DNA of 64,000 nucleotides from Dehalococcoidia bacterium (GTDB taxonomy: Bacteria > Chloroflexota > Dehalococcoidia > Lucifugimonadales > Lucifugimonadaceae), in assembly GCA_965214735.1 (NCBI GenBank), contig OZ243977.1:1621801-1685800 (forward strand), given 5' to 3'. This document shows, piece by piece, positions 1 to 33,645 of the stretch (the stretch's first letter is position 1; every line of letters starts with the position of its first letter). The notes under the pieces were generated by a model that saw only the letters and a program-made list of their open reading frames with translations, was not told where the DNA came from and ran no database searches. The position numbers and the translations under genes were made by a program.

Positions 1-575
1 CGTCGCCCTCGTATGCCCGATCCATCAGCAGCCGCGGGCTTCCGAGCTGCGGGCCGAGGCGTTCGAGCAGCCGGCGACCCTCCGGCGCGTCGTGCGCCTG
101 TCCCGGCGACAGGGAGAACGTCACGGCCGTCCGAGCATCCGCGGCAGCCATATGAATCTTGGTGGTCCAACCGCCCCGGGACTTCCCGATCGACTGGGGT
201 CCGTTTTTTTTAAGGCCCCCGTCCCGTCCGGATGCACCTTGACGATGGTGCTGTCCAAAGAGACCGCCTCCAGCTTGACACGCACTATCTGTTCTCTCTG
301 AAGGTGTTCGAACACCCGGTCTAGAACCCCCTTCTTCGACCAGCGGTTCATGCGGGTATAGATCGTGTGCCAGTTGCCGAACCGGGCCGGCAGCCCGCGC
401 CACTTGCAGCCGTGCTCGGCCACATACAGGATCGCGTTCAGAACCTGGAGGTTCGGGACGCTGACGTTGCCGCGCTGCACAGGCAGGTACGGAGCTATGC
501 GTTCGTATTGAGATTCTGTGATTTCCATGCGGAAAGCGTAGCACAGATCCACACGCTAGTGTTAACACGCCCTAG
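1..575 (-). mobile_element. IS5-family (IS427/IS1031-like) insertion sequence, copy 1, cut by the window edge
   Basis: The reverse complement matches the first ~575 bp of the complete copies at 16956-17776 and 32789-33610. The terminal sequence ...CGCTAGTGTTAACACGCCCTAG ends at 575. A T8 run at 204-211 equals an A8 run on the coding strand. Confidence 0.9.
121..552 (-). CDS. IS5-family transposase OrfA (N-terminal DNA-binding part, DUF4096-like)
   Basis: The 143-aa ORF is identical to OrfA of copy 2 (MEITESQYERIAPYLP...NRWSKKGVLDRVFEHL). It ends shortly after the A8 run. Confidence 0.85.
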   Translation of the reverse strand: MDLCYAFRMEITESQYERIAPYLPVQRGNVSVPNLQVLNAILYVAEHGCKWRGLPARFGNWHTIYTRMNRWSKKGVLDRVFEHLQREQIVRVKLEAVSLDSTIVKVHPDGTGALKKTDPSRSGSPGAVGPPRFIWLPRMLGRP

Positions 576-1803
576 TGCGCTCACTTTGGGAGTCTGCGTG
601 ATAGATTGACTGGGTTTCCAAGCGGGATGAGCATCAAGAGCCGCTTGCACATGCTCCTCAGCAGGCGACATGAACAGACGTTTGCGGTCTCCCTCGGCGA
701 CTATGGCGGTCATCTGCTCGCCCATCTTGCCGGCTTTCGCCTGCTCGCGCACGTACGCGAGCCTGACCGTGTTCCCGCAGGCGATGCAGGTGGTGCCAGT
801 GCGGTTGACATTGCCGGTTTCCGGCACTCCAACCTTGTGGTTCTGGACTGCGAATGAGACCGATCTGGCTTCGTCATCGATGACCGGACGGATCCAGCGC
901 TGGTTGCCGCGCTTCTTGGAGAGCTGGAAGGTTTTCATCATCGGAATCTTGATGCCGCATGCCGGGTTGGGGCATGGGATCGTGCGCGTCCAGAGCCAGG
1001 CGATGACGGTTCTCTCGATGCCGTCGGCATCCTTCACTTCGGGGTAGAGATGTCCGATGCGTCTGAAGGCTTCTTCTCGCATCCACTTGCCGTAGTATCG
1101 GATGTCGTTCGCCAGCCCCGCCGTGCCTCGCCATGGGATTCGCTGTCTGCGCCTGCCTCTGCCGGTGGTCATGCCCATGGGGTCGGAGTCGGGATTGACG
1201 GGAGGCTGGCTGTGGAACTTGGGCGGCAGCTCGATGAGGGACTTGGTGATGAGTACTGCGATGGGGTTGAGATCCGATCCCATCGCTTTCATTCCGAGTC
1301 TCTGCGCTTCTAGCGGGATGGAGCCTCCGCCGCAGAACGGGTCGTAGATGGCGGGCGCGTTGTCGCGGAGGTATCGGAGGGTGAGAGCGGAAGTGACATG
1401 GGGGGGGGGGGGGGGGGGTAGCTTGGGATGTGACGGGTGGGAATGGCGGCTTGTCGGGCGACCGGGCGATTGAGCGTGCGATCTCGCGTCGGGCTCGAGC
1501 CAGCAGGTCATCGTCGTTGGTGTTCTGCCACTTGACGAGTTCCTTGATCAGGTCGTGGAGACGCTGTCTTTCGATGCGTTGAGACTCTTCGGTCCGGAAT
1601 TCTTGGGGGCACGCTGACGGGTCGTCGACCATGCTGGCGAATATGACGGCGCGGCAGGCGGCGAGGGGGCGTCTCGCCCACCAGAGGTGGAGAGTGGAGG
1701 GGTGCCCGTGTCGGATGGACTTCTCGCGCGCCGATTCGGCGTTTACGACATCGAGCGGGAGGTCGACCTCGATGAGTTTCTTGCGATATGGCGTGTCTGG
1801 CAT
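576..1803 (-). pseudogene. DUF1156/COG1743-type DNA methyltransferase, frameshifted at a homopolymer and 3'-truncated by IS copy 1
   Basis: ORFs 874-1803 and 495-1511 are one gene in two frames. The N-terminus reads [18 protein letters not shown]...[15 protein letters not shown]. After the C19 tract come the SAM motif [18 protein letters not shown] and the Zn-ribbon-like CPNPAC...CIACG. The frame runs directly into the IS end at 575, so the C-terminal half, including catalytic motif IV, is absent here. Confidence 0.8.
1400..1418. repeat. G19 homopolymer (C19 / poly-Pro on the coding strand) inside the methylase gene
   Basis: Counted directly: g at 1400 plus 18 g at 1401-1418. The two methylase reading frames switch exactly here. 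Confidence 0.95.
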
Positions 1804-2264
1804 GGGTTTACAGGATATATACAGGATTTTGATGGGGAATACGGAGTGGAAGTGAGATGATTGAGATCAATGGTCAGGATGGTTGCACATGGTTAGCAGG
1901 GTTTGGGGTAGCGGGTCAGAGGATGCGCCGGGGTAGCGAGCTAGGTGAGAGTGGGACGGGCTGTTGTGTGGCGGTGCGACGGGCTGAGACAGGGTTATAC
2001 GGTCTGCTACAGTGTCAATGTAGAGAGGGGGATTTGTTGGATTTTGCTGTTGGAGTAAAGAAACGGGACGCAGGATATGAAACGGAGCAAGCGAGAAGAA
2101 CGAAGGTTTCATTGGTTCGATGTTAAACAGGCACGGGGATCGTCAGTCAAGGTGCCGCAACCGAGCGGGAAGTTTAAGATTCTGTTTCCGGGTGCGGAGT
2201 CGATCAAGTTGCCGTCAGAACAAAAATCCACGGATAAGGACGGTTCTGTGAAGTAGGCGACTTT

Positions 2265-2966
2265 ATGACGGACTCGTTTTTGATACTTACGTTGATCTTT
2301 TTGCCGGGCGGACTTTCAGTATCTCCCAATCAGTTCTATAATCCTCGTGTGGTCGACCATTCGGGAATCATACAATTAGGCATCTTGGTATATCATGCGA
2401 TCTTCGTCCATATTTTTATTTTCTCACTTCTTTGGTTAGCGTCTCTATTTTGGCCAGGTTATTTTTTAGGAATACTTGATCTTGATGCGATATTGGTTGA
2501 TGGGGTGCATGAATACATAAAAGCCAAAACTGATATTTGGTTCAGTGTATTCAGTATATATATTGTATCTCTGATATTCATTGCTGTATTGTTCGGGATT
2601 GCTGATCTACCTTCTAGATTCACAAATTTGATTGGTTCTTTAGCACATAGAATCGGATTGGCTGGCGAGCCTGTCTCTAATGTTCCGATCTGGTACGAGG
2701 TTTTTGATATAGAGCGAAAATCACTTAATGAACTTCATGTTCAATTACATGTATTGATGAAAGATGGCAGTGAGTATTATGGAGATTTATATAGTTATGA
2801 GCTTATATCTACTCCAGGGGAAGGCAGGAATATACTTCTCGGCGATGCTGTTTTCATTCCCAAAGGAGACAGATCTTCTCCAATTGAAATCTCTCTCGAC
2901 AAGGGTGGTGTATTATTGAATAGCAATAACATATCGAGTATCGAGTATCGAGTATTTGTACCATAG
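2265..2966 (+). CDS. hypothetical membrane protein, strongly AT-rich gene (possibly DUF6338-like; unverified)
   Basis: 233-aa ORF. The N-terminal two thirds are hydrophobic helices (LILTLIFLPGG, IFVHIFIFSLLWLASLFWPGYFLGIL, SVFSIYIVSLIFIAVLFGI). The C-terminus looks soluble and beta-rich. GC is visibly far below the flanks. Confidence 0.6.
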   Translation: MTDSFLILTLIFLPGGLSVSPNQFYNPRVVDHSGIIQLGILVYHAIFVHIFIFSLLWLASLFWPGYFLGILDLDAILVDGVHEYIKAKTDIWFSVFSIYIVSLIFIAVLFGIADLPSRFTNLIGSLAHRIGLAGEPVSNVPIWYEVFDIERKSLNELHVQLHVLMKDGSEYYGDLYSYELISTPGEGRNILLGDAVFIPKGDRSSPIEISLDKGGVLLNSNNISSIEYRVFVP

Positions 2967-2984
2967 CGGATACGAGGAAGATAG

Positions 2985-3086
2985 TTAAAAGATGTCGACG
3001 ATCTTGTGGATTAGCTGGCTGTTCAGATGTCCAGTCTCAGCTTGATATCGTCTTAAAGAGATGCTGTCGCCGGCGATGGATTTTGA
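2985..3086 (-). pseudogene. relic of a DUF499-gene 3' end (internally deleted, frameshifted copy)
   Basis: The minus strand reads SKSIAGDSISL..., versus ASKSIGDSISLDD in the intact gene. 3044-3086 aligns to 6156-6194 and 3026-3046 aligns to 6003-6023 (18/21). The relic therefore lacks the 132 nt in between and carries small indels. It abuts IR-L of the transposon. Confidence 0.6.
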
Positions 3087-3107
3087 TGGAACTTATATAC
3101 GAGTTTA
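3087..3107. repeat. IR-L of the IS1595-family transposon
   Basis: TGGAACTTATATACGAGTTTA, the exact reverse complement of 5750-5770. Confidence 0.9.
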
Positions 3108-3130
3108 CCCAAGCCCAGACCCGATATTTG

Positions 3131-3159
3131 TTGACAATATTAGTTATATTTGATATAAT
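3131..3159 (+). promoter_or_regulatory. perfect sigma70-type consensus promoter (TTGACA-N17-TATAAT) for the transposase/MTase operon
   Basis: TTGACA lies at 3131-3136, a 17-nt spacer follows, and TATAAT lies at 3154-3159. The ATG is at 3166, only 6 nt after the -10 element, and no SD is visible. The mRNA is therefore probably leaderless or nearly so. Confidence 0.7.
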
Positions 3160-3165
3160 GAAGAT

Positions 3166-4140
3166 ATGGCAACAAAGCAAATAGCACCGGGTCAATCCCA
3201 TCGCGAAGGTATCTCGCTTTTCAAAGTGATGAAGATGTTCAGCACGGAACTCAAGTCAGAGAACTGGTTCATCGAACAGCGGTGGGGGTCAAGGTCGAAA
3301 ATCGCCTGCCCGTTCTGCGAAAGCCGCAACATCCTGCATTGCAAGAACCGCAAGCCACAACCGTTCCGGTGCCGCGAATGTCGCAAACAATTCAGTGTCA
3401 AGACCGACACTTTCATGCACGGATCGAAGGTACCGCTATCGAAGTGGGGCGTGGCGATATACCTCTACAGCACCAGTCTCAAAGGTGTGAGTTCCATGAA
3501 ACTGCACAGAGACTTGGACGTGACGCAGAAGACCGCATGGTACATGGCGCACCGTATCCGTGAGGCGTGGGACACGTTCGAAAATCCGTTTCACGGACCG
3601 GTAGAGGTTGACGAGGTCTACATAGGCGGACTGGATCGCAACCGACATGCGTGGAAGGTCAAGGAAGGTCGTGGACCCAAAGGCAAAACCGCTGTCGTGG
3701 GAATGAAGGACCGTGACACCAATATGGTGACCGCAGAAGTCATCGAAACCACTGACAAAGAGACGTTGCAGGGTTTCGTTGAAGTCAACACCGAAGTTGA
3801 TGCAGAAGTCTACACGGATGGCAACCCGTCGTACGCCACTCTGAACCGCATTCACTTGTCAGTGGATCACTCCAACGAGGTCTATGTGGAAGGGAATACC
3901 CACACCAATGGAATAGAGTCGTTCTGGGCAATGTTCAAGCGCGGACACAAAGGCACGTATCACAAGATGTCCAAGAAACATCTGCACCGCTACATGTCCG
4001 AGTTCGCGGGCAGGCACAACGCTCGTCCGCTGGACACTGAAGACCAGATGGGACGTGTAGTCCGTCTGGGCGAAAGGAAGCGTCTGCGATACACTGATCT
4101 GATCGGACCACAGCACACACGTCGAAATCTGACTCTGTAA
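3166..4140 (+). CDS. IS1595-family transposase (N-terminal Zn-ribbon plus ISXO2-like DDE domain)
   Basis: CPFCESRNILHCKNRKPQPFRCRECRKQF Zn-ribbon, then VEVDEVYIGG ... NGIESFWAMFKRGHKGTYHKMSKKHLHRYMSEFAGRHN, which is typical of IS1595/ISXO2 transposases. Confidence 0.9.
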   Translation: MATKQIAPGQSHREGISLFKVMKMFSTELKSENWFIEQRWGSRSKIACPFCESRNILHCKNRKPQPFRCRECRKQFSVKTDTFMHGSKVPLSKWGVAIYLYSTSLKGVSSMKLHRDLDVTQKTAWYMAHRIREAWDTFENPFHGPVEVDEVYIGGLDRNRHAWKVKEGRGPKGKTAVVGMKDRDTNMVTAEVIETTDKETLQGFVEVNTEVDAEVYTDGNPSYATLNRIHLSVDHSNEVYVEGNTHTNGIESFWAMFKRGHKGTYHKMSKKHLHRYMSEFAGRHNARPLDTEDQMGRVVRLGERKRLRYTDLIGPQHTRRNLTL

Positions 4141-4207
4141 GAGGCGTGCCCTGACATGAACAGTAGCGGTACCCCCCCATTTTCCTACAAACGTTCAAAA
4201 CAGGACG

Positions 4208-5581
4208 TTGTTCCACGGCGACAATTTGGGGTTTCTGCGCGGGATGAATAGCGGCACGGTGCACCTCATCGCCACGGACCCGCCGTTCAACAAGAACCGC
4301 GACTTTCACGCCACGCCGGACAGTCTGTCGGCAGGTGCAAGGTTCCAAGACCGCTGGTCGTGGGACCGGGACGTTCATGAGGAGTGGACGGATGCTATCA
4401 AGGATGACTGGCCCGCTGCTTGGGCTGTGATCGACTGGTCGAGAATGACCTACGGGGACGACATGGCAGCGTTCCTGTGCTGGCTTGGCGTGCGGTTGAT
4501 GGAGATGCACCGCGTGTTGCGCGACGATGGGAGCATATACCTGCACATAGACCATACGGCGCACGCTTACGTGAAGACGCTGATGGACGCGATATTCGGG
4601 CGTAAGAACTTCAGAAACGAAATCGTGTGGCACTACACTGGTGGTGGTCGTAGCAAGACGTATTTTTCTCGTAAGCATGATTCTCTGTTGTACTACGCGA
4701 AAAACGCTAATCAGGCTGTATTCAATGTAGATGCAATTCGTGAACCATACAAAAAAACAAGTGGCTATGCACGAGGTGGAATCACAGCAAAAAGCGGCAA
4801 AAAGTACATGCCGAATCCCAAAGGCACGCCAGTAGATGATGTTTGGGATATACCGATTATCAATCCGCTAAGTAGAGAACGATATGGTTATCCTACCCAG
4901 AAACCGCTTACGCTTTACGAGCGTATCATCAAAGCGTCATCTAACGAGGGAGACATCGTACTTGATCCGTTCTGCGGATGTGCCACTACACCTATAGCAG
5001 CTGAACGCCTGGGGCGGCGGTGGATAGGGATGGACATTTGGGATGGTGCTGCGGACATTGTGAAACAACGCTTGGAAGATGAACGGCGCATGTTCGCATC
5101 CGAACATGTCCAAGTAATCACAATACCTCCAGTTCGAACCGACGATAACGATGTTGCTGCACCTGTTCTACGTATCAGATTGCACCGTCCGATGGAGCCT
5201 TGGCAACGCTTGACGCACAAGCAGATGTCCAATGTGCTGGTGTATTGCCAAAGCAATGGAGAAGGTGTGGTCTGTGCAGGTTGTGGACGCGTCCTCGAAA
5301 AGGAGTTCATGCAACTGGATCACATCATGCCACGATCAGACCGTGGTACCAACGACATTCTCAATCGTATCCTTCTATGCGGTCCCTGCAACTTGAGAAA
5401 GAGCAATACCTTGACGCTGGCAGGTCTGTTGAAGGAGAACAGAAAGAATGGTTGGATGAAGCACGCCGTACGCGCCCAGACAGCCAGGGATAACGCGGAA
5501 GTGTGTGCGTTACGAGTACGAGACGAGTTTGATACGTCTGAATGTCAATCACTCATCAATGGGAGAAGACTACCGATATGA
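4208..5581 (+). CDS. beta-class N6A/N4C DNA methyltransferase fused to a C-terminal HNH endonuclease domain
   Basis: Motif IV DPPF (LIATDPPFNKNRDF) precedes PTQKP and motif I (VLDPFCGCATTPIAAERLGRRWIGMD). The C-terminus has an HNH signature, CAGCGRVLEKEFMQLDHIMPRSDRGTNDILNRILLCGPCNLRKSN. TTG is the first possible start after an in-frame stop at 4157-4159. Confidence 0.85.
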   Translation: MFHGDNLGFLRGMNSGTVHLIATDPPFNKNRDFHATPDSLSAGARFQDRWSWDRDVHEEWTDAIKDDWPAAWAVIDWSRMTYGDDMAAFLCWLGVRLMEMHRVLRDDGSIYLHIDHTAHAYVKTLMDAIFGRKNFRNEIVWHYTGGGRSKTYFSRKHDSLLYYAKNANQAVFNVDAIREPYKKTSGYARGGITAKSGKKYMPNPKGTPVDDVWDIPIINPLSRERYGYPTQKPLTLYERIIKASSNEGDIVLDPFCGCATTPIAAERLGRRWIGMDIWDGAADIVKQRLEDERRMFASEHVQVITIPPVRTDDNDVAAPVLRIRLHRPMEPWQRLTHKQMSNVLVYCQSNGEGVVCAGCGRVLEKEFMQLDHIMPRSDRGTNDILNRILLCGPCNLRKSNTLTLAGLLKENRKNGWMKHAVRAQTARDNAEVCALRVRDEFDTSECQSLINGRRLPI

Positions 5582-5736
5582 CATACCGGCGCAGACCTAA
5601 AGACGAACGATTCAAGTTGTCGAAAAAGATCAGTAAGAAACGATACGTCATGCCAGCTCGGATCGACGCACATCCAGAAGAGATTGCACGCGGTATCTTA
5701 AGCATTCGAGGATACGCCAAGCGAGCTAAGTCATGA
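5578..5736 (+). CDS. small basic hypothetical protein (52 aa), start overlaps the MTase-HNH stop (ATGA)
   Basis: ATG at 5578-5580 overlaps TGA at 5579-5581. The product is MTYRRRPKDERFKLSKKISKKRYVMPARIDAHPEEIARGILSIRGYAKRAKS. It ends 13 nt before IR-R. I recognise no homology. Confidence 0.35.
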   Translation: MTYRRRPKDERFKLSKKISKKRYVMPARIDAHPEEIARGILSIRGYAKRAKS

Positions 5737-5749
5737 ATCAAGGTTTGGC

Positions 5750-5770
5750 TAAACTCGTATATAAGTTCCA
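5750..5770. repeat. IR-R of the IS1595-family transposon
   Basis: TAAACTCGTATATAAGTTCCA, the exact reverse complement of 3087-3107. Confidence 0.9.
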
Positions 5771-5902
5771 AGATTTTCCTGTGTTGCTTGGACCGACAAA
5801 CACGGTCAAAGGACGCAGGTCGATGCTGGCCTCGGCGATTGATCCGAAGTTGGAGATTGTTAATTCAAGAGACTTTGTGCTGGTGGGTAACGCAGTAGTC
5901 AT
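5771..5902 (-). pseudogene. N-terminal 44 codons of an AAA/ABC-type ATPase (AAA_15/AAA_21/OLD-like N-terminus), truncated by the IS1595-family transposon
   Basis: Hand translation of the minus strand gives MTTALPTSTKSLELTISNFGSIAEASIDLRPLTVFVGPSNTGKS, with Walker A GPSNTGKS. A strong SD (GAGGAGGAAGG) lies about 9 nt upstream of the ATG at 5902. The frame hits IR-R at 5770 and stops 11 codons later. The ORF is too short for the ORF track. Confidence 0.7.
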
Positions 5903-5981
5903 GCAGCGACCTTCCTCCTCAGTCGTCGGATGTTTTCACCGGGATGGCGGTAGATGTCTGGGTGAAAGGGTGATTTGCCCT

Positions 5982-8900
5982 TCATTCAGTTGTATCTGTA
6001 ACGATGTCCAGTCCTAGCTGGATGCCGTTTTCGCGGATCGAGCGGGTTATGTTCTGGGAGAAGCCGTGTGCATTTTGAGCTTCGATGATGATTCTGACGG
6101 TGACTTCTCCCCCACCGTCGTGCAGAGTGCGGATGATCTCGCTCTGCAGCTGGCTGATGTCGTCTAAAGAGATGCTGTCGCCGATGGATTTGGATGCGGT
6201 GATGCGCCTAGGGCCAGGAGGGGGCGCGGCTGAAAGAGTATCGGTTGGTGAGGACGGGATTGGTTCTCGGCGCTCTTGCTCTACGTAGTATTCGCTCGGC
6301 TCATTTTTCCTATCCTCTGATTGTTGAATCTGCGCGATCTCGTGACGGACTAGGAACCCCGGACTTTCGGCTAGGCGGTTGAGGGTTTCTCGGTATGCGA
6401 GGTTGTGGTACCGATCTCCGCTGTTTTCGGTGGCTTCACTGTAGCCGGTGGCGTGTCCGAATGCTCCCGATTGGACTCCTTCGGCGATGCAGGCGTTCAA
6501 TACGCTGCGGTTGCGGAGTCGCGGCATGTAGATGTAGGATGCGATGATGTTCCACAGGATGTCTATGTCGATGTGGTAGTCGTTATAGTTTTCGTTGGAC
6601 CAGATGTATCTCTCGAGGATGTTCACCAGTGCACTTGGTGCGATGCGGTCGACGAGGACTTCTTCGGCGATGCATTTGGCGAGTGCGCTTTGGATGATGT
6701 CGCCGGTGTTCGGCGCGTCTGTCTGGAGGGTAGAGAATTTGTATCTTCCGTCCGATGAATCGTCTTGAGCCGGTGCCAATGCCCATTTGTAGGCGTTGGG
6801 AAGCTGACTGACGACTTGGTTTTCAGCAGCTCTGAGGTTGCGTTCGGCTTCTCGTTTACGCGCTCCTTCGAGTGTGAGTTTTCGATCTCCGTTGAGGATG
6901 GAGTCCCACGCTAGATATGTGGTGGCGGCGCGTCTGAGCGTGTTTACATCGTCGTATCTTGCGGCGAGGAAGATGATGGTGTTGAGCTTGGTGCGTTTGG
7001 CATCGCCTCTGTTCAAGAGGATGTTGAGTGCCTCATCATGAGCGTAGTTGGCATCTGCCTGCCTTGATTTCAGGTAGCTCGAGGGTGGAAGTATGACGAG
7101 TCGGACGTTGTCGGATTCTGGGATTTTTTGCGATGATTCGGGGCATACGATGACATCGGATGTTCTGGAGTCTCTGGCGGCTTCGTGCAGCTGGTCGATG
7201 ATGTAGTGGTCTGTATGTTCGTTGCTTATCTGATCGGCGCGGTCGGCGGCGACTTTGTTCAGGTTCTCTTCGGTGTGGAAGTAGTATCGGTGGTCAGCTG
7301 CGCGGTATAGGTAGTAGAGCTGGCCATGCATCAGTTCCAAGGCGTCGCGATAAGTTGCGGCTGACTGTGTGGGCTCGACCGATGCGAGCATGACTTCGCG
7401 TCGTCCGATGCCTCTGATGGCGCGAGTTGGTGCGCTGGCGAGGAATACGGCTCTAGCGGCTCTTCGGGCGGCGCCTCCGACGTCTGCGAAGCGTTTCTGT
7501 GTTCTATCGATGATGTCGGTTCGGGAGTCTGTGCCGTCGATTTCGGTGATTACGGGTTCCCATCTTCCGTCTAGTACTTTTGTGAATTCGGCGCTGAGCG
7601 CGGGGTCGTCTAGCGGTAGTGATGCGGGGATGATGAGAGGCGAAGAGTCTCGTTGCAGGTAGAGCCTGCTGATGGTGTTCGCCATGATTCGTAGAACGCC
7701 GCGGGTGCGTTGGAATTTATGGATGGTGGACCAGTCTGTGTATAGGCGGTTGAATATCTCTGGGTGAATGGGGTAGCAGTTTTTGATTCTCTGCAGGTAT
7801 CGTGTTTCGGATGCTTCGGCTGGGAACTGCTTCTTCAGGTTGCCGCCGTACATATTTGAGAATGCTTGGCATGTTCGGTCGCGCTCTTGTTCATCGATGG
7901 AATCGGTAAAGAGTCTGCGTCGTATCACTTCGTAAGCTTCGTTTACTTCGAGGGGATGCCAGATAGATTCGGTTCTGCCGAAGAGTTGATCGAGCCGGTT
8001 TAGTGCTTCCATGCCTGCATCGCCGCCGGCTTCGGCTTCGCTTTCTGGCAGTGTCACGACGACGGTGACGTTTTTGCTTCTGCCGGCTGATTCGGTGAGC
8101 GCTTGCAGGAATGTGTATATGCTTCCGACGTTTTCTCGCGGCACGTTTCGCACGTAAGCGACGAGCTCGTCGATCAATATTACGGCGGGGCCTGTGTGTT
8201 GGAACAGCTGGTCCAGCTGAGCGCCGGCGGGTGCGGTCTGTGTACGTGCGGCTTCGGCGATGATGTCGTATGCTTGTTGGCTGCCGAGCTGGTATGCGAT
8301 CTGTCCCCAGAGTGTGTTGAGGGGGTCTCCGTTGGGTGTCTTTTGGCTGTCGGTTGGTGAGTGGTATGTACCGCTGATGACTGCGACTTTGGCTTTATCG
8401 GTTGTTTCGGTGTCTACCTCAGCTTCTTTGAACAGTTCAAGGATTTCTTGATTTTCGGTTAGTTGGTTGATGGATTTTGCGAGATGGAATAGTGCGATGA
8501 GGCTGTGTGTCTTGCCTCCTCCGAAGCCGGTTTTGGTTTGGATTACGGGGTCGCCGCCTTTTGCGTTGATTCGCTTGATGGCGTTTACGAGAAGTGAGTG
8601 TATGCCTGGGGTGATGTAAGTCCGTTTGAAGAATTCTCTGGGGTTTCCGTATTCGGGCGTCGCTTTGCCGTTTTGGACTTGTATGAGGTCGGCTGCGAAC
8701 TCGGATTCTGAGAAGTTTCCCTCGGCGACGTCGGAGTGTGGCTGGATGACATTGCGCCATGGTGCGAGGTTGGATGAGCTAGCGCGTGGTTTTGCGGCGG
8801 GTTTTGGTTGTGCTTTGGTTTCTTTTGGAGGTGCTGCTACTTGAACGGTGGTCGTGGTCGCTGGTGCGGGTCTGGTTTCGGGTGCGATGGGTTGTGCGGT

Positions 8901-9353
8901 CAGACCGTCTCGTATCTCTTCTACGGCGTGTTTCTGGTCTGGAGCGTTGACGATGCCGAGGATTTCGGCAATGTCGGTGAGTCTTGAGCGCGCCGTTTCA
9001 TGGTCAATCACAATGCCATGTGCCCAGCTCCTTCGGATTTCATTGACGAGTCCGTGGCGATTTAGGAAGGCGTAGCGATCGTTGATGCGTTTCGAGAATA
9101 CATCGTCCCAGTGGTTCGATACCATAGGCAAGAAATTGCCGATATCAATCGATTCTTCGACGTTGTTACCCCGTTGTCTGAGCTGTCGGTAGTAATCGTT
9201 GCTACTAGGCATAGATTCAGCGATAACGTTTTCGACAGGCCTGTTCGGGTTCGCGCGTTTCAATGATTGGATTATGAAACGTCGCATGGTATCGCGATAG
9301 ATATTTAGTCCCCTGTCCAATGCGTCTCGCGTTTTGTTACTTTGTGTGGTCAT
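5982..9353 (-). CDS. DUF499/COG1483-type P-loop ATPase with an N-terminal Swt1-like HEPN domain
   Basis: 1123 aa. The N-terminal helical domain ends in RRSWAH (Rx4H, nt 9018-9035). A Pro/Ala/Lys-rich linker follows. Then come APWRNVIQPH..., Walker A GFGGGKTHS (nt 8502-8528) and Walker B-like VILIDELVAY. Size and order are typical of DUF499 proteins. Confidence 0.8.
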   Translation of the reverse strand: MTTQSNKTRDALDRGLNIYRDTMRRFIIQSLKRANPNRPVENVIAESMPSSNDYYRQLRQRGNNVEESIDIGNFLPMVSNHWDDVFSKRINDRYAFLNRHGLVNEIRRSWAHGIVIDHETARSRLTDIAEILGIVNAPDQKHAVEEIRDGLTAQPIAPETRPAPATTTTVQVAAPPKETKAQPKPAAKPRASSSNLAPWRNVIQPHSDVAEGNFSESEFAADLIQVQNGKATPEYGNPREFFKRTYITPGIHSLLVNAIKRINAKGGDPVIQTKTGFGGGKTHSLIALFHLAKSINQLTENQEILELFKEAEVDTETTDKAKVAVISGTYHSPTDSQKTPNGDPLNTLWGQIAYQLGSQQAYDIIAEAARTQTAPAGAQLDQLFQHTGPAVILIDELVAYVRNVPRENVGSIYTFLQALTESAGRSKNVTVVVTLPESEAEAGGDAGMEALNRLDQLFGRTESIWHPLEVNEAYEVIRRRLFTDSIDEQERDRTCQAFSNMYGGNLKKQFPAEASETRYLQRIKNCYPIHPEIFNRLYTDWSTIHKFQRTRGVLRIMANTISRLYLQRDSSPLIIPASLPLDDPALSAEFTKVLDGRWEPVITEIDGTDSRTDIIDRTQKRFADVGGAARRAARAVFLASAPTRAIRGIGRREVMLASVEPTQSAATYRDALELMHGQLYYLYRAADHRYYFHTEENLNKVAADRADQISNEHTDHYIIDQLHEAARDSRTSDVIVCPESSQKIPESDNVRLVILPPSSYLKSRQADANYAHDEALNILLNRGDAKRTKLNTIIFLAARYDDVNTLRRAATTYLAWDSILNGDRKLTLEGARKREAERNLRAAENQVVSQLPNAYKWALAPAQDDSSDGRYKFSTLQTDAPNTGDIIQSALAKCIAEEVLVDRIAPSALVNILERYIWSNENYNDYHIDIDILWNIIASYIYMPRLRNRSVLNACIAEGVQSGAFGHATGYSEATENSGDRYHNLAYRETLNRLAESPGFLVRHEIAQIQQSEDRKNEPSEYYVEQERREPIPSSPTDTLSAAPPPGPRRITASKSIGDSISLDDISQLQSEIIRTLHDGGGEVTVRIIIEAQNAHGFSQNITRSIRENGIQLGLDIVTDTTE

Positions 9354-9415
9354 AGGTGTGTCTCGGAGTGTTTTACGCTTTCTCGGACTCTGTTGGGGGA
9401 TGATACGGCCTTTCC

Positions 9416-10231
9416 TCAGAGAATCTGATCCAGGAACATCTTTGTGCGTTCTTCTTGGGGGTTGTCGAAGATCTGTTCGGGAGTTCCGAGCTCTACAAGG
9501 CTTCCCTCGTCGAAGAACGCCATTCGGTCCGCCACTTCGCGGGCGAATCCCATCTCATGGGTCACGCATAGCATGGTCATACCGGTGGCTGCCAGCTCGC
9601 GCATCACGTCCAGCACTTCCTTGATCATCTCGGGGTCGAGCGCGGATGTGGGTTCGTCGAAGAGCATGATCTCGGGCTGCATCGCGAGCGCGCGTGCGAT
9701 GGCTACTCGCTGCTGCTGTCCGCCGGAGAGCTCGGCGGGGTACTTTTCGGCTTGTTCGGGTATTCCTACGCGCTCGAGCAGCTGCATGGCTAAGGCATCT
9801 GCTTCAGCTTTTGGTAGATGTCTCACTCGCTGCGGCGCCAAGGTGATGTTGCTGATGACAGACATGTGTGGAAAGAGGTTGAACTGTTGGAAGACCATGC
9901 CGACTTCTCGGCGGATGGCGTCGAGATTGCGAAGGTCGTTGGTCATCTCTATGCCGTCGACGACTATCGTGCCCTGCTGATGCTCTTCTAAGCGGTTTAT
10001 GAGGCGGATGAATGTGGATTTGCCGGATCCTGATGGTCCGAAGATGACTACGACTTCTCCCCTCTTGATGTCCATGCTGACATCTCGGACGGCGCAGAAG
10101 CTGCCGAACCATTTGTATACGTTCTGGCATACGATGATGTTGTCTCGCTGCTCGAGGGGGACGGATAGTATGGCATCTTCGGCTGTGTCGTGGATCGTTG
10201 GCTGAATAGATCGATCGGCGGTCTGGGTCAT
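9416..10231 (-). CDS. aapP: amino-acid ABC transporter ATP-binding protein
   Basis: Walker [10 protein letters not shown], signature [15 protein letters not shown] and Walker [12 protein letters not shown]. It is the last gene of a J-Q-M-P ordered operon. Confidence 0.9.
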
Positions 10232-10294
10232 GGTTGCGGTTCTCCGTGATGCGTAGGTGTTGATTGTGTTGCGGTGGTGCTGATTCGTGTCTTT

Positions 10295-11515
10295 CTATCG
10301 TCTTCCTACTCCGAGTGCGCGTTCGATTCGTCGGCTCACGTATGACATTGAGAATGTGAATATCCAGAACACGACTGCGATGAATAGATAGACTTCGCGT
10401 CCGTTGTCTACGAACTCGATGTTGCCTTGTATTGCGACGCGCCCCATCTCGACGAGGTCTAGCATGCCGATGATGAATACGAGGCTGGTGTCCTTAAAGA
10501 GGCTTATGGATTGTCCGACGATCGCTGGGATGATGTTGCGTATTCCCTGCGGCAGGGTTATCAGCAATGTGGTCTGCCATCCGCGGAGTCCGAGAGCGCG
10601 TGCGGCCTCGGTCTGCCCGGTAGTGACTGCTGCCATGCCTCCACGCACGTTTTCTGCCATGTATGCGGAGCTGAACAGTGTGATGGTTATTGCGGCCAGA
10701 TAGAGTTCATCGACGGATATGGTCTCGGGGAATGTGAGTGGCAGGATGTGTCGTGACATGAAGAGCAGTGTGATGAGAGGGACTCCGCGCACGATTTCGA
10801 TGAATCCGACGCAGAATATCTTTACGAATGGCAGCTGGCTTCTTCTGCCAAGTGCGAGCATGATGCCGATGGGAAACGAGCAGATGATGCCGAATGCTGC
10901 CAGCAGCAGGTTGAGCATCAATCCGCCGATGTCTTGAGTGTTTACGGGGTCTAGTCCCGGGATGCCGTCTATCCCGATGATCAGGATCAATGAGACGACG
11001 AAGACGAGTATTGCGGTTGTGACGAAGATTCGGGGACGTCTGACGGCTGGTATAGATGCTGCGGCGGCGTATCCTGCCGCTGCCGCGAGTGTGTTGAGCG
11101 CGAATAGAGTGCTGTTGATGATGCCGCTTTCGATAGATGCCAGCGCGGCGAGGATGGTGATGATGCATACAGCGATGACGAATCCGATGGCGATGCCGCC
11201 CCACATGCGCGCCGACATTCCGAGCAGGGTGCTTACCAGCAGCAGCGCGACTTCGGGTCTCCAGTAGAGCTCCTGCGGGTATAGTCCCACGATGTATAGA
11301 GGCATTCGGCTGGTGATGACTTCCCAATCGGCAGTCGTAAATACCCATTGGGCCACATTGATGCCTGCGAGAATCAGGATCACGGCGAGGGCGACGGTGA
11401 GGAAGGAGTCGAATACCGACTTGAACAGGTTGGCGCGTATCCAGCCCGCGATTCCCACGGTCATCCGAGGGGGAGCGGGAGCAGGATCAGGGGCGGTTGC
11501 GGATTGAGTGGTCAT
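10295..11515 (-). CDS. aapM: amino-acid ABC transporter permease (long AapM-like type)
   Basis: 406-aa polytopic membrane protein with the EAA-type loop AENVRGGMAAVTTGQTEAARALGL. Confidence 0.85.
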   Translation of the reverse strand: MTTQSATAPDPAPAPPRMTVGIAGWIRANLFKSVFDSFLTVALAVILILAGINVAQWVFTTADWEVITSRMPLYIVGLYPQELYWRPEVALLLVSTLLGMSARMWGGIAIGFVIAVCIITILAALASIESGIINSTLFALNTLAAAAGYAAAASIPAVRRPRIFVTTAILVFVVSLILIIGIDGIPGLDPVNTQDIGGLMLNLLLAAFGIICSFPIGIMLALGRRSQLPFVKIFCVGFIEIVRGVPLITLLFMSRHILPLTFPETISVDELYLAAITITLFSSAYMAENVRGGMAAVTTGQTEAARALGLRGWQTTLLITLPQGIRNIIPAIVGQSISLFKDTSLVFIIGMLDLVEMGRVAIQGNIEFVDNGREVYLFIAVVFWIFTFSMSYVSRRIERALGVGRR

Positions 11516-11522
11516 TGAATTT

Positions 11523-12698
11523 TCAGCCGGCGCCTGGGTATCTGGTGAGACGGTTGTATATGTTTCCGACCAGCGAGTAGAAGAGGCTCATGGCGAGGTA
11601 TGCGCCCATCACCATTGCGGTGAGTGATATTGCTGGAGCTATCTGTGTCATTGTGGTTGCCACGCTGACGATGTCCGGGTATCCGATTGCGGCTGCGAGG
11701 CTGGAGTTCTTGGTGAGGTTTAGGTACTGGCTGATGGTGGGTGGGATTATTACTCTGAGCGCTTGCGGAAATATCACGTGCCGCATGGTGGGCATCGTGG
11801 GTAGTCCGAGCGAGCGCGATGCTTCGGTCTGTCCCTTGTTGACGGCTTGAATTCCGGCGCGTACGATCTCGGCGATGTATGCGGAGGTGTAAGCGACTAG
11901 CCCGACGAGGAGTGCGACGAAGCTGCCGGTGAACTTTGCGCCGCCTTGGATTCGTCCGAATCTGCCCTGAGCTTCTGGAACCATTAGTTCGAGCGGGGTG
12001 AATATGATAATTCCGATTAGTGTGATGAAGATGGCGATTGCGAAGCCTGCGACGATGGGGTAGCTCGGTCTGCCGGTTTTGAGTTCTCGCGTGTGCAGCT
12101 GTTTGGCGACTAGTACTGCTGTTGCGATGCCTGCGATGGTGAGGATGGTCCAGTACCAGAATCCGCCCATCGGGGTGGGCCAAGGCAGGTACAGGCCGCT
12201 GTTGTTCAAGTAGAAGGTGTTGAGCAACTCGTATCCTTCTCGCACGTTTGGAAGGGACAGGACTATCAGGAACCAGAAGAGCAGCTGCACGAGCAGGGGG
12301 ATGTTGCGGAAGATCTCTATGTATGCGAGTGCGATTCGGCTCAGCAGCCAGTTGGAAGAGAGTCTGGAAACTCCGATGATGATGCCGATGATGGTGGCGA
12401 ACACGACTCCGAGTAGAGACGCCTTGATAGTGTTCAGAACCGCCACTCCGAATCCGTATAGGTAGCTCTGGGACGGATGGTAGTCGATGACCGATTCTCC
12501 GATCGGTATCTGGGCGGATTGGTCGAGAAAACCAAATCCGAAGGGTATGTCGCGGTCTTGAATCTCGCGATTCACATTGAACAGGAATGCCGAGATGATG
12601 AAGATGACGATCACGGCGGAGACGATCTGCAATGTCCACTGCAACACAACTACATTGCGCCACACAGGAATTCCTCGGTGATATAGAAGCCTGTTCAA
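11523..12698 (-). CDS. aapQ: amino-acid ABC transporter permease (long AapQ-like type)
   Basis: 391-aa polytopic membrane protein with the EAA-type loop AEIVRAGIQAVNKGQTEASRSLGL. Confidence 0.85.
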   Translation of the reverse strand: MNRLLYHRGIPVWRNVVVLQWTLQIVSAVIVIFIISAFLFNVNREIQDRDIPFGFGFLDQSAQIPIGESVIDYHPSQSYLYGFGVAVLNTIKASLLGVVFATIIGIIIGVSRLSSNWLLSRIALAYIEIFRNIPLLVQLLFWFLIVLSLPNVREGYELLNTFYLNNSGLYLPWPTPMGGFWYWTILTIAGIATAVLVAKQLHTRELKTGRPSYPIVAGFAIAIFITLIGIIIFTPLELMVPEAQGRFGRIQGGAKFTGSFVALLVGLVAYTSAYIAEIVRAGIQAVNKGQTEASRSLGLPTMPTMRHVIFPQALRVIIPPTISQYLNLTKNSSLAAAIGYPDIVSVATTMTQIAPAISLTAMVMGAYLAMSLFYSLVGNIYNRLTRYPGAG

Positions 12699-12750
12699 TC
12701 CCAGTTCCTGTAGCTACCCTTCGCCTGTTATCGATGACATGGCGGCTGTT

Positions 12751-12781
12751 AAAAAAGAAGGGGGATGCTTGAGCATCCCCC
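12751..12781 (-). terminator. intrinsic terminator/attenuator between the binding-protein gene and the permease genes
   Basis: The minus-strand RNA reads GGGGGAUGC-UCAA-GCAUCCCCC followed by UUCUUUUUU. It lies 43 nt after the stop of the 12824-14038 gene. Confidence 0.75.
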
Positions 12782-12823
12782 TCCCGGTGTGACTCCTTTG
12801 ACGAAAACTCGTCGCGAATTTTA

Positions 12824-14038: not shown

Positions 14039-14308
14039 GTTCTCAGTTCCTCTCCAGATTTTTCGTATTAACTCAAGTTTCGACGTGCGTCGTTTACGCG
14101 TCGACCCAATGAATTAATTGTACGACTGTGCCTTCGGCTTTTTCCTACTCAAGAATGACTGAATAGCTTGGATCAGCGGGTTCAGAGCGTCTCTCGCAAT
14201 CAACGCTGTATTTCGCTGAAGAGCCTATCGTCCGCTAGATAGAGTCTGTAGGGATACGTCCTCAGTCCGTGATCTTCTTCAGATCACAAAAGCTTTTGAT
14301 ATCCCGTT

Positions 14309-14328
14309 GTCTCTCCTTAAGGAGAGAC
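14309..14328 (-). terminator. possible terminator hairpin after binding-protein paralogue 2
   Basis: Perfect 8-bp stem GTCTCTCC-TTAA-GGAGAGAC. A second 7-bp hairpin lies at 14269-14287. There is no clean U-tract, so this call is weak. Confidence 0.35.
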
Positions 14329-14359
14329 GGCTACTTCCTGCTCCGTCTCCGACGACGTT

Positions 14360-15508: not shown

Positions 15509-15738
15509 TACACGGCTCCGAGGTGTCGCAAGATTATAGAAGTTCGACAAGTAAATTTTACAAATAAGGTAAAACTTCCTAGCGACTTTTTGAGTAATGA
15601 AACGATGCTCCTGCGTCTTTCATCTCTAAGCCTTTTAACCTTTACGGCTGCGATATCCACTTGATAGACAATGCTCTAGCCATCGCGTTTCGGATGGCTG
15701 GTAGCCTCGGCTTAATCAGGTGGTTAGTTCTAATGTGC

Positions 15739-16626: not shown

Positions 16627-16978
16627 TGTGTTCCTCTTTGGTTGACCAGCGGGATCGCCGTCGCTCATATTTTCGTCGCCTGTTCGTTGTCCCGCGCGAG
16701 TAACGCTAACAGATAGAGTTGGCGTCGTGTGTGATCGAGCAGGTAAATCAGTCCAACGATCAGCGAGACGTGACGTGATTGTGCTGGAGTGTGGTGCTAC
16801 GGTTGCTTTCTTTTATCTCTATCGCGCATCTGGGATCGTTTATGCATCCGACGACAATGGGGTTGACTCGCACGGGTTTCTCTTCGAACTCGAAGGAACA
16901 TTGACACCTACGACGTAGGCGGAGTATGGATACAGGATGAGAGTACCGGTGGCGACTAGGGCGTGTTAACACTAGCGT

Positions 16979-17766
16979 GTGGATCTGTGCTACGCTTTCC
17001 GCATGGAAATCACAGAATCTCAATACGAACGCATAGCTCCGTACCTGCCTGTGCAGCGCGGCAACGTCAGCGTCCCGAACCTCCAGGTTCTGAACGCGAT
17101 CCTGTATGTGGCCGAGCACGGCTGCAAGTGGCGCGGGCTGCCGGCCCGGTTCGGCAACTGGCACACGATCTATACCCGCATGAACCGCTGGTCGAAGAAG
17201 GGGGTTCTAGACCGGGTGTTCGAACACCTTCAGAGAGAACAGATAGTGCGTGTCAAGCTGGAGGCGGTCTCTTTGGACAGCACCATCGTCAAGGTGCATC
17301 CGGACGGGACGGGGGCCTTAAAAAAAACGGACCCCAGTCGATCGGGAAGTCCCGGGGCGGTTGGACCACCAAGATTCATATGGCTGCCGCGGATGCTCGG
17401 ACGGCCGTGACGTTCTCCCTGTCGCCGGGACAGGCGCACGACGCGCCGGAGGGTCGCCGGCTGCTCGAACGCCTCGGCCCGCAGCTCGGAAGCCCGCGGC
17501 TGCTGATGGATCGGGCATACGAGGGCGACGAGAGCCGCCAGCTGGCGCTGGACCTGGGCTTCGTCCCCGTGGTTCCGCCGCGCCGGAGCCGGATCGATCC
17601 GTGGGAGTACGACCGCGAGATGTACAAGCGGCGCAACGAGATCGAGCGGCTGTTCCGCCGGCTGAAGGGCTTCCGACGCATCTTCTCACGCTTCGAGAAG
17701 CTGGACGCGATCTTCACCGGGTTCATCATGTTCGCACTCATAACAGAGGCATTGCGCCAGTGTTAA
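16979..17766 (+). CDS. IS5-family transposase OrfAB, requires a -1 frameshift at the A8 run (OrfA alone = 16979-17410)
   Basis: OrfA ends at 17410. The -1 frame (C-terminal part of ORF 16963-17766) continues NGPQSIGKSRGGWTTKIH...DRAYEGDESRQL...NEIERLFRRLKGFRRIFSRFEKL (DDE domain). A slip on TTA_AAA_AAA_ACG gives exactly the copy-3 protein. Confidence 0.85.
17320..17327 (+). promoter_or_regulatory. A8 run containing an A_AAA_AAA -1 frameshift heptamer (IS copy 2)
   Basis: Counted directly. In the zero frame it reads TTA AAA AAA ACG. Confidence 0.7.
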
Positions 17767-17776
17767 CACGCCCTAG

Positions 17777-18664: not shown

Positions 18665-18866
18665 GATGTTCCTCGTTGATTGATCGGGGGGGAGTGTCTT
18701 CTCAGTTCAGTGGCAGGCGGTATGGAGTATGGCGACAAGAAACAGAGTGTCGGCTGTCCAAGACGGTTTCATCGATACGCAATCCACCCGCGGGATGTAA
18801 CGCTAACAGACAACAACCTTCTACGCATTTTGTGCTCGGGACGGACGGATGGGTTTCAGCAGGCTC

Positions 18867-32708: not shown

Positions 32709-32811
32709 AGTATGAAGATTCTGTAGATGGCTTACACTTGGTAGCGGACGGTTGGGGCTGGTTACTATTATGGTGGTGATGGTTTTTTCTAGGGCGTGTT
32801 AACACTAGCGT

Positions 32812-33594
32812 GTGGATCTGTGCTACGCTTTCCGCATGGAAATCACAGAATCTCAATACGAACGCATAGCTCCGTACCTGCCTGTGCAGCGCGGCAACGT
32901 CAGCGTCCCGAACCTCCAGGTTCTGAACGCGATCCTGTATGTGGCCGAGCACGGCTGCAAGTGGCGCGGGCTGCCGGCCCGGTTCGGCAACTGGCACACG
33001 ATCTATACCCGCATGAACCGCTGGTCGAAGAAGGGGGTTCTAGACCGGGTGTTCGAACACCTTCAGAGAGAACAGATAGTGCGTGTCAAGCTGGAGGCGG
33101 TCTCTTTGGACAGCACCATCGTCAAGGTGCATCCGGACGGGACGGGGGCCTTAAAAAAAAACGGACCCCAGTCGATCGGGAAGTCCCGGGGCGGTTGGAC
33201 CACCAAGATTCATATGGCTGCCGCGGATGCTCGGACGGCCGTGACGTTCTCCCTGTCGCCGGGACAGGCGCACGACGCGCCGGAGGGTCGCCGGCTGCTC
33301 GAACGCCTCGGCCCGCAGCTCGGAAGCCCGCGGCTGCTGATGGATCGGGCATACGAGGGCGACGAGAGCCGCCAGCTGGCGCTGGACCTGGGCTTCGTCC
33401 CCGTGGTTCCGCCGCGCCGGAGCCGGATCGATCCGTGGGAGTACGACCGCGAGATGTACAAGCGGCGCAACGAGATCGAGCGGCTGTTCCGCCGGCTGAA
33501 GGGCTTCCGACGCATCTTCTCACGCTTCGAGAAGCTGGACGTGATCTTCACCGGGTTCATCATGTTCGCACTCATAACAGAGACATTGCGCTAG
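32812..33594 (+). CDS. IS5-family transposase, single fused 260-aa ORF
   Basis: It is continuous across the A9 run (33153-33161): ...HPDGTGALKKNGPQSIGKSRGGWTTKIH... This equals the predicted frameshift product of copies 1 and 2. Confidence 0.9.
   Translation: MDLCYAFRMEITESQYERIAPYLPVQRGNVSVPNLQVLNAILYVAEHGCKWRGLPARFGNWHTIYTRMNRWSKKGVLDRVFEHLQREQIVRVKLEAVSLDSTIVKVHPDGTGALKKNGPQSIGKSRGGWTTKIHMAAADARTAVTFSLSPGQAHDAPEGRRLLERLGPQLGSPRLLMDRAYEGDESRQLALDLGFVPVVPPRRSRIDPWEYDREMYKRRNEIERLFRRLKGFRRIFSRFEKLDVIFTGFIMFALITETLR
33153..33161 (+). other. A9 run (one extra A relative to copies 1 and 2) that fuses orfA and orfB
   Basis: Counted directly: 8 a at 33153-33160 plus an a at 33161. Confidence 0.9.
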
Positions 33595-33645
33595 TGTTAA
33601 CACGCCCTAGATGACTGTCGGGAGGCTGCTATTCCTATTGGATAT

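Follow-up and report, generated by a model that had tools for sequence, protein, structure and literature searches.

A probable recently inactivated Hma (Type-1 BREX-related) defense locus of a helicase-less subtype in a Dehalococcoidia genome

We analyzed a 64,000-nt stretch of the genome of a Dehalococcoidia bacterium (phylum Chloroflexota; assembly GCA_965214735.1, contig OZ243977.1, positions 1,621,801 to 1,685,800 of the forward strand), hereafter referred to as the window. An original prediction, made from the letters of this DNA, had described positions 1-9353 as a decayed mosaic defense island in which an intact HEPN-DUF499 ATPase gene is accompanied by a crippled DUF1156 methylase gene and two unrelated mobile elements, and all the features that it listed are present where it placed them. 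Our analysis indicates that this region is probably a recently inactivated locus of the Hma defense system, also classified as a Type-1 bacteriophage exclusion (BREX)-related system, and that it belongs to a helicase-less subtype with the gene order hmaC→hmaB. The ATPase gene hmaC is a full-length open reading frame (ORF), and the methylase gene hmaB is off twice: it carries a +1 frame break in a hypermutable C19 tract, and it is interrupted by an insertion sequence (IS) at codon 409, before its catalytic DPPY motif. Neither the break in a 19-G homopolymer nor the clade of relatives without the helicase effector, both described below, was part of the original prediction.

The assignment to Hma is based on both genes. 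The 1,123-aa protein encoded by hmaC (5982..9353, minus strand) has HmaC as its best PADLOC match (821 bits, profile positions 2-935 of 941, covering aa 195-1116 of the protein), and PADLOC calls the two pieces of the methylase HmaB, with matches to profile positions 8-117 (154.5 bits) and 136-409 (267.6 bits) of 967. The methylase gene lies on the same strand as hmaC, 4,178 bp downstream. The Pfam and PADLOC searches that had been proposed as a check on the domain calls returned significant matches to both DUF499 and DUF1156, and the COG1483-COG1743 pairing that had been recognized is the HmaC-HmaB pair of Hma. The pairing had been called a predicted, mechanistically uncharacterized module; the pairing itself holds, but the module is already named, as Hma or Type-1 BREX-related (BR), and its component HmaA is active against phage T4 (PMC11232893).

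This system has been noticed several times. An operon consisting of a HEPN-AAA+ protein, a methylase, and an SNF2-restriction endonuclease was first described in 2013, together with the HEPN-DUF499 fusion and the restriction-modification (R-M) operon of Ava_2192 (PMC3710099), and the same operon type was seen again in 2020 (PMC7641849). The name Hma, with the components HmaA, HmaB, and HmaC, was given by PADLOC. In Halomonas meridiana, HmaA on its own protects against phage T4 (PMC11232893), and in 2026 Hma was reclassified as a Type-1 DUF499-centered BR system (PMC12839542).

Within HmaC, a Swt1/Abi2-type HEPN RNase domain occupies aa 14-134 (8952..9314, minus strand; PF18731, 34.7 bits against a Pfam HEPN_Swt1 cut-off of 27.5 bits) and contains the Rx4H motif R107-H112 (RRSWAH, 9018-9035, minus strand). 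The DUF499/HmaC ATPase body follows at aa 195-1116 (6006..8771, minus strand) and was delimited by Pfam (DUF499, 102.5 bits, E = 2e-29), PADLOC, and alignment; the original domain calls for this protein were therefore correct. R107-x4-H112, the Walker A motif GFGGGKTHS (8502-8528, minus strand), and the Walker B residues D395-E396 were invariant in an alignment with 24 homologues. PF18731 and PF04465 occur together in 113 of the 120 best homologues of this HmaC, out of more than 2,300 found, and the HEPN fusion has been reported in 1,370 of 2,446 Type-1 taxa (PMC12839542). The HEPN-DUF499 fusion is therefore the normal, and the commonest, architecture of the Hma system.

The closest relative of the window is a contig of GCA_964347645.1 (referred to as L001), whose HmaC (P0001) is 96% identical to that of the window; identity is 40-55% to members of the closest clade described below and approximately 32-37% to canonical Hma loci. 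L001 is collinear with window positions 6003-20000 at 96-98% nucleotide identity, and this collinearity extends through an amino-acid ABC transporter operon. Between the two hmaC genes, the synonymous divergence (dS) is 0.084, compared with 0.077-0.119 in neighboring genes, and the ratio of nonsynonymous to synonymous divergence (dN/dS) is 0.28, indicating that hmaC has been under purifying selection since the split from L001. Because L001 is collinear with the window over this range and the dS of hmaC equals that of its neighbors, the locus is chromosomal and vertically inherited on its hmaC side. A tRNA-integrated island was ruled out, since no tRNA gene lies near the hma locus and the flank is syntenic with this relative. 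A search of window positions 1-10000 with Rfam gave no match. Downstream of hmaC, L001 carries a DUF6338 gene followed by hmaB, which shows 86% nucleotide identity to the window; the contig breaks off within hmaB, 94 bp short of where the G tract described next would lie.

In the window, hmaB is a pseudogene of a DUF1156 N6-adenine methyltransferase of which only codons 1-409 are present (572..1803, minus strand), as delimited by PADLOC, Pfam, and conceptual repair. Its two pieces lie in different frames: the ORF at 874-1803 (minus strand) contains DUF1156 (Pfam, 106.6 bits), in agreement with the original methylase call, and the ORF at 495-1511 (minus strand) contains the start of the methyltransferase domain. 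The +1 frame break between them falls in a G19 homopolymer at 1400..1418 (C19, poly-Pro, on the coding strand), located in the linker between the DUF1156 and methyltransferase domains. In a conceptual repair, G18 or G21 (a change of -1 or +2 bases) yields a single 409-codon frame that reaches the IS junction. In the orthologue of locus L004, the catalytic DPPY motif lies at approximately aa 552, that is, beyond codon 409. With the frameshift at G19 and the IS cut at codon 409, this hmaB has neither the DPPY motif nor the C-terminal helix-turn-helix triad of a complete HmaB. The statement that the methylase is out of frame and cut by an IS5-family element while the HEPN-ATPase is full length was thus borne out.

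The window begins inside the interrupting element, of which approximately 240 bp lie off-window. The rest of hmaB may follow there, and the earlier description of the gene as the N-terminal half of a methylase is correct for the window, but not necessarily for the genome, as the IS insertion stands at the window edge. No C-terminal half of hmaB was found elsewhere in the 64 kb. We also considered a relocation of this half by inversion between inverted IS5 copies and rejected it, as no remainder of HmaB, of the GIY-YIG gene introduced below, or of the AAA_15 gene was present in the window.

The interrupting element can be assigned to the IS5 family (IS427-like). Its right 571 bp of approximately 814 bp occupy window positions 1..571 (minus strand), and it is inserted at the CTAG at 572-575 in hmaB. 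The DUF4096 ORF at 121-552 (Pfam, 84.4 bits) corresponds to orfA and carries an A8 slippery site. As in other elements of this family, DUF4096 and DDE transposase ORFs are combined with the terminal inverted repeat GGCGTGTTAACAC, with 4-bp CTAG target duplications, and, in the window, with three near-identical copies. Copy 2 (16960..17772, plus strand) and copy 3 (32793..33606, plus strand) are complete and flanked by CTAG; window positions 1-576 are 100% identical to 17530-16955, and positions 1-575 are 99.8% identical to 33364-32789. Because the copies are near-identical, the insertion in hmaB is very young. In the synteny comparison that the original prediction had called for, copy 2 was absent from L001 within the flank that is otherwise collinear with it, showing that the element moved recently in this lineage and is currently active. 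Two paralogous HpcH/HpaI-like genes (15739-16668 and 17777-18664), which share approximately 75% nucleotide identity, flank copy 2, and the same gene pair is present in L001.

An assembly artefact, in which the true tract would be G18 or G21 and/or the IS copy would be a minority variant or a repeat mis-join, leaving hmaB intact in most cells, is unlikely in our assessment; within this explanation, an IS mis-join is less likely than a miscalled frameshift. In long-read consensus sequences, most of the indel errors that remain fall in long homopolymers. A one-base change would restore the frame, the IS is a three-copy near-identical repeat, and the contig of the nearest relative stops inside hmaB shortly before the equivalent of the tract. 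However, the IS junction has a regular CTAG target that fits the hmaB frame, where it falls in GCA CTA G, the codons for Ala-Leu; a genuine insertion would be expected to show this fit. In addition, the element is demonstrably mobile in this lineage, and hmaB would still be split by the IS even if it were in frame.

The G19 tract is the only G/C run longer than 7 nt in the 64 kb, the next longest being 7 nt, and under an independent and identically distributed composition model, 9e-6 runs of at least 19 would be expected in the window. A 19-nt homopolymer is intrinsically unstable, and hmaB must therefore have switched between in-frame and out-of-frame states before the IS insertion. Transcriptional slippage at such a homopolymer would make the frameshift leaky. 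One possible reading is that C19 is a real, selected phase-variation switch that flips hmaB and with it the whole system ON and OFF at high frequency, with the IS as a later, separate hit. We regard such a contingency switch as a reasonable candidate that nevertheless falls short of an even chance; it is compatible with the explanation of the region as a recently inactivated, helicase-less Hma locus. The tract has the form of a contingency locus, namely a long simple-sequence repeat within an ORF whose frame is set by the repeat number. The linker in which it is located is not conserved and would tolerate additional prolines, and a single slip of -1 would bring the frame to ON. Related loci provide further cases: in the archaeal locus L055 (Bathycorpusculum), a G11 run at 4192-4202, which encodes the Gly-Gly-Gly of the S-adenosylmethionine-binding motif DPFAGGG, likewise places hmaB +1 out of frame, and G10 would be in frame. 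Two Collinsella loci have a G10 run approximately 90 nt upstream of the start of hmaA (L018:3418-3427 and L035:3532-3541), which may act as a promoter-level phase switch. There is also a precedent in the Pgl system, where a G tract lies in pglX of Pgl/BREX-2 (PMC4365076).

Several observations weigh against a selected switch. A tract at this site is found in none of the 14 orthologues, which have an ordinary linker of 10-20 residues there, and its length is not seen to vary in any second strain or read set. The association between long runs and hma genes is based on three to four cases and is not statistically strong, and with the IS in place, a switch would be moot at present. Relatives carrying the tract did not turn up: an exact-pattern scan of metagenome contigs for the G tract returned 0 matches, and a protein-anchored metagenome scan for G-tract relatives returned none above 66% identity.

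To place the window among known Hma loci, we compared it with a closest clade of 16 loci. Fourteen of these (L002-L014 and L016) come from species-representative genomes, which are metagenome-assembled genomes of Dehalococcoidia, other Chloroflexota, and Poribacteria, and the remaining two (L082 and L083) were fetched through matches to truncated HmaB proteins. Canonical loci (e.g., L021, L037, and L068) have the order hmaA-hmaB-hmaC with an HmaA of 1,175-1,232 aa. In the closest clade, hmaC precedes hmaB in all 16 loci, as it does in the window. Using three HmaA proteins (Swi2/Snf2 helicase plus PD-(D/E)XK nuclease) as tblastn queries, we found no match in the 64-kb window, none in L001, and no HmaA-like match within ±10 kb in L002-L013 and L016; in L014, the one match was partial, at 31% identity, and belonged to an unrelated helicase located upstream. 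L082 and L083 were assessed from their gene tables, in which no helicase appears.

All 16 loci of this clade carry an ORF of approximately 115-135 aa after hmaB (e.g., L009:16163-16528 and L083:12482-12859). It matched Pfam GIY-YIG above the cut-off in four of the five ORFs tested (23.8-29.8 bits), and the catalytic Y, Y, R, E, and N residues are invariant. This ORF is present in none of the hmaA-containing loci. Across 66 pairs, the identity between GIY-YIG proteins follows the identity between the HmaC proteins (r = 0.95). The conserved presence after hmaB, the retained catalytic residues, and the divergence that follows HmaC together suggest that the GIY-YIG gene behaves as a component of the module and not as a passer-by. 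Both the gene order and the HmaC similarity of the window fit this helicase-less subtype; the position at which a GIY-YIG gene would be expected lies to the left of window position 1. GIY-YIG is not mentioned in the text of the 2026 classification, nor does it appear as a domain in six of its supplementary files (PMC12839542), and no link between a DUF499 operon and GIY-YIG was found in the Hma/BR literature searched. The helicase-less hmaC→hmaB→GIY-YIG subtype is thus a variant for which we found no description.

Two members of the clade show unusual arrangements. In L007, a second, divergent hmaC-hmaB pair (L007:18060-23354; HmaC, 194 bits) directly follows the first GIY-YIG gene, forming tandem Hma modules. 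In L082, the hmaC-hmaB-GIY-YIG module (L082:609-14530) is located between the E1 and E2/E3 genes of a pyruvate/2-oxoacid dehydrogenase cluster.

How could hmaC be retained beside a dead hmaB? By analogy with other members of the family, an intact system probably works as follows. HmaB would methylate adenines of the host DNA within a motif that its nested recognition domain reads, and HmaC, an ORC/Cdc6-like AAA+ ATPase, would join HmaB in assembling on unmodified DNA. Invading DNA would be cut by the GIY-YIG nuclease, and the HEPN RNase fused to HmaC would serve as a last-resort abortive effector. HmaB would supply sequence recognition for restriction as well, and its loss would silence the system without self-attack, because by analogy with BREX and Type I/III R-M systems the methylase would be the specificity subunit for restriction. 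In BREX, both defense and methylation require the methylase (10.1101/2024.04.12.589305). A methylase-off state would then be a safe system-off state, which we consider the most economical reading.

The original prediction had regarded an intact effector with a dead methylase as an unusual state. Our comparison does not support this, because hmaB is also broken in L012, L083, L055, and L082. In L012, an in-frame stop interrupts hmaB and hmaC is a full-length ORF; the TAG is at the center of a perfect 44-nt palindrome (GGCGTCCGCTCCATGATCCT CTAG ...; L012:16660-16725) that replaces approximately 20 codons. In L083, an IS110 insertion follows aa 431 of hmaB, and hmaC is again full length. In L082, hmaB contains a miniature inverted-repeat transposable element (MITE)-like insert of approximately 115 nt at a CTAG (9290-9410), and the 3' end of hmaC is itself out of frame. 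The L082 insert is flanked by CTAGTGC repeats and lies right after the conserved TTFSDLV codons, which suggests a MITE inserting at the CTAG that these codons form; the HmaB of a second genome (P0122) ends with a tail much like that of L082. Since the IS is young, the homopolymer is unstable, and hmaB is broken in other genomes too, an intact hmaC beside a dead hmaB would be unremarkable under a recent knock-out and a BREX-like logic. Of the possibilities first suggested for this locus, the evidence favors two, namely phase switching and ongoing loss of the system.

A different explanation for the retention of hmaC is that HEPN-HmaC is kept for an independent job, either as a self-contained abortive-infection ATPase-RNase or together with neighboring cargo. 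The full-length gene with all catalytic residues, its dN/dS of 0.28, and the broken hmaB beside a full-length hmaC in L012 and L083 would agree with this. However, in every one of the 16 related loci hmaC occurs in linkage with hmaB and the GIY-YIG gene and all three co-diverge, dN/dS integrates time before a very recent disruption and is silent on selection since then, and the neighboring AAA_15 partner is itself destroyed. We therefore judge an independent role to be improbable.

The explanation with the least support is that HmaB acts as an antitoxin-like, self-protecting methylase, such that the HEPN-ATPase alone would be an unstable, autotoxic state. Published models do have the methylase protecting host DNA from the system (PMC7641849; PMC12839542), but the genome was assembled in precisely this state, hmaB-null loci recur elsewhere, and the BREX methylase is needed for defense as well as for methylation. 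Moreover, this clade is without the helicase-nuclease, the part that those models treat as toxic. We consider an autotoxic state very improbable here.

Some points also weigh against our own interpretation of the region as a recently inactivated helicase-less Hma locus. Both the C-terminal half of hmaB and the position of GIY-YIG fall to the left of the window edge, where a helicase could in principle also lie. Assemblies do not give the exact length of a 19-nt homopolymer reliably. The frequency of broken hmaB genes must be read with the sampling in mind: L082 and L083 were chosen because their hmaB is truncated, and in the unbiased sample of species-representative genomes, hmaB was full length in 13 of 14 and broken in only 1 of 14. 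For the same reason, an apparent excess of truncated HmaB proteins among the matches was taken mainly as a ranking bias toward query-like length. The roles given above to HmaB and HmaC are predicted from family knowledge, and the harmlessness of HmaC without HmaB is argued from analogy and from its recurrence in other genomes. In Halomonas, over-expression of HmaB left phage T4 infectivity unchanged, and HmaA alone protected (PMC11232893).

We next turn to the region between the two core genes. The gap of 4,178 bp in the window had been described as filled with a membrane-protein gene, a gene relic, an IS1595-family transposon, and a truncated AAA-ATPase gene, and its contents and size were as described. 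The gap varies from approximately 30 bp to 2.1 kb with differing cargo in 14 further related loci, and genes are reported to be inserted within hma operons in 66.5% of systems (PMC11232893). The gap between hmaC and hmaB is therefore a variable cargo slot. In L004, the slot contains a complete 521-aa AAA_15 ATPase (PD-T4-4_A/AriA-like) and a 158-aa partner, in L007 DUF5615 and NYN genes, in L083 DUF433 and DUF5615 genes, and in other loci unknown genes.

In the window, one gene in the slot encodes a DUF6338 membrane protein (2265..2966, plus strand), is convergent with hmaC, and is AT-rich, with 35-39% GC. Its Pfam DUF6338 match is borderline (26.3 bits against a cut-off of 26.5). This gene had been taken for a foreign one. 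However, the corresponding slot of L001 holds a DUF6338 gene in matching orientation, with only 45% protein identity; the gene is therefore not a private foreign insert of the window, and its slot evolves quickly. A word-indexed search for homologues returned only the query itself, and in the literature one unrelated paper mentions the family. Just upstream, at 2077..2256, lies a possible small partner ORF of 59 aa with a weak counterpart in L001 (VPQPSGKFKILF in the window and IPQPKGEFVDLF in L001; E = 3e-5 over 19 aa), and the DUF6338 cassette may consist of two genes.

Further toward hmaC, a relic of a second hmaC 3' end is located at approximately 3005..3088 (minus strand). It reads SKSIAGDSISL, a frameshift, and DDIKLRLDI followed by a stop codon, with approximately 45 codons deleted internally. 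Its repeats match hmaC at 75% (3019-3054/5996-6031), 100% over 19 nt (3054-3072/6165-6183), and 89% (3071-3088/6179-6196), and the relic is 87% identical to part of hmaC in the closest relative (L001:13158-13199).

The relic adjoins the left end of an IS1595-like transposon (3087..5770, plus strand) bounded by 29-nt terminal inverted repeats that are 93% complementary. Like members of the IS1595 family, it encodes a DDE_Tnp_IS1595 transposase with a Zn ribbon (3166-4140; Pfam, 126.9 and 23.1 bits) between its inverted repeats, and with it the presence of two unrelated mobile elements, IS5-family and IS1595-like, is confirmed. IS1595-family members with passenger genes are known; the cargo here is an N6_N4 methyltransferase-HNH fusion (4208-5581; Pfam N6_N4_Mtase, 182 bits; HNH, 40 bits), and the element also contains a 64-aa unannotated ORF (5542-5736). 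We found no support for this cargo as a known plasmid-borne unit, since a comparison with a plasmid collection returned only distant methylases with less than 40% identity, none of which spanned the HNH part. Unlike typical members of the family, the element has no clean 8-bp target duplication, as its flanking 8-mers GATTTTGA and AGATTTTC have only a shifted GATTTT core in common, and it is present as one copy in the window.

The right end of the transposon adjoins the Walker A codons of an AAA_15 (PD-T4-4_A/AriA-like) ATPase gene, of which the N-terminal 44 codons remain (5771..5902, minus strand; Pfam, 30.9 bits), cut just after Walker A (GPSNTGKS). PADLOC matches to AriA, HEC-01A, and Old were obtained for this stump, which is 72-74% identical to the N-terminus of the full 521-aa AAA_15 ATPase encoded in the L004 slot. 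The two flanks of the transposon thus belong to different genes. The mismatch between them points to a plausible history of the gap, in which a cassette exchange would first have brought in an hmaC 3' end along with the AAA_15 cassette and an IS would later have mediated a deletion. We also considered, and rejected, the idea that cassette exchange generally leaves relics of hmaC 3' ends behind; none was present in the other gaps, and a match in L082 proved to be the C-terminus of its own gene in another frame.

Taken as a whole, the window locus is a broken example, and its value lies in directing attention to relatives that are intact, among them L005, L009, and L016. The novelty lies mostly in these relatives, as a GIY-YIG-bearing helicase-less subtype and as a hint of hmaB as an on/off point. 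An HmaA-free clade with a co-evolving trio of HEPN-HmaC, HmaB, and GIY-YIG would offer a simpler system in which to study the roles of the ATPase and the methylase, and the recurrence of a broken hmaB beside a full-length hmaC predicts that the methylase is needed for restriction and that its loss is not autotoxic. Only tentatively do we propose the two ideas jointly, i.e., a degraded locus of the subtype in which GIY-YIG takes the place of the helicase-nuclease and the HEPN-ATPase gene comes before the methylase gene, with hmaB as a genuine C19-switched contingency locus. If this were true, it would be the first homopolymer phase switch reported in the Hma/BREX-related family; HmaB would be the specificity subunit for both restriction and modification, and methylase-OFF would mean a safe system-OFF.

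Compared with other defense systems, the window shares single features with several. As in SspBCD/Dnd-type systems, where SspC is also a DUF499 ATPase, there is a distant similarity in the ATPase, but membership was rejected: the SspC matches to the window ATPase are partial and very weak (E = 2.6e-5), and no phosphorothioation genes are present. Like the phase-variable mod genes of Type III R-M systems, hmaB contains a simple-sequence repeat in a methylase ORF that sets ON or OFF by frame. In those systems, the methylase-off state is safe since restriction depends on the methylase. Unlike mod, HmaB belongs to a different protein family, and the window tract is a 19-nt homopolymer in a linker.

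Like Type 3 BREX (BrxC/PglXI/BrxHII), the locus pairs an ORC/Cdc6-like ATPase with a large N6-adenine methylase, and as in Pgl/Type-2 systems, where pglX is switched by the length of a G tract, hmaB carries the same kind of lesion. In contrast to BREX, the best PADLOC match of the window ATPase is HmaC/DUF499 and not BrxC (DUF6079), and the effectors are HEPN and, in the relatives, GIY-YIG. No PglZ, BrxA/B, or BrxL was seen in the window, where no profile search was aimed at them.

The closest agreement is with Hma. The window differs from canonical Hma loci in that its order is hmaC→hmaB and not hmaA-hmaB-hmaC and its hmaB is a pseudogene, and loci of the closest clade have a stand-alone GIY-YIG nuclease in place of the Swi2/Snf2 helicase-nuclease. 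As in Hma, however, a DUF499 AAA+ ATPase with an N-terminal Swt1/Abi2-type HEPN domain is encoded on the same strand as a DUF1156 methylase, and the HmaC and HmaB profiles of PADLOC match the window proteins, HmaC nearly end to end. Foreign defense-type genes between the core genes are a further common feature, including an AAA_15/AAA_21-type ATPase cassette in the window and an AAA_21-type ATPase pair between hmaB and hmaC in Halomonas (PMC11232893).

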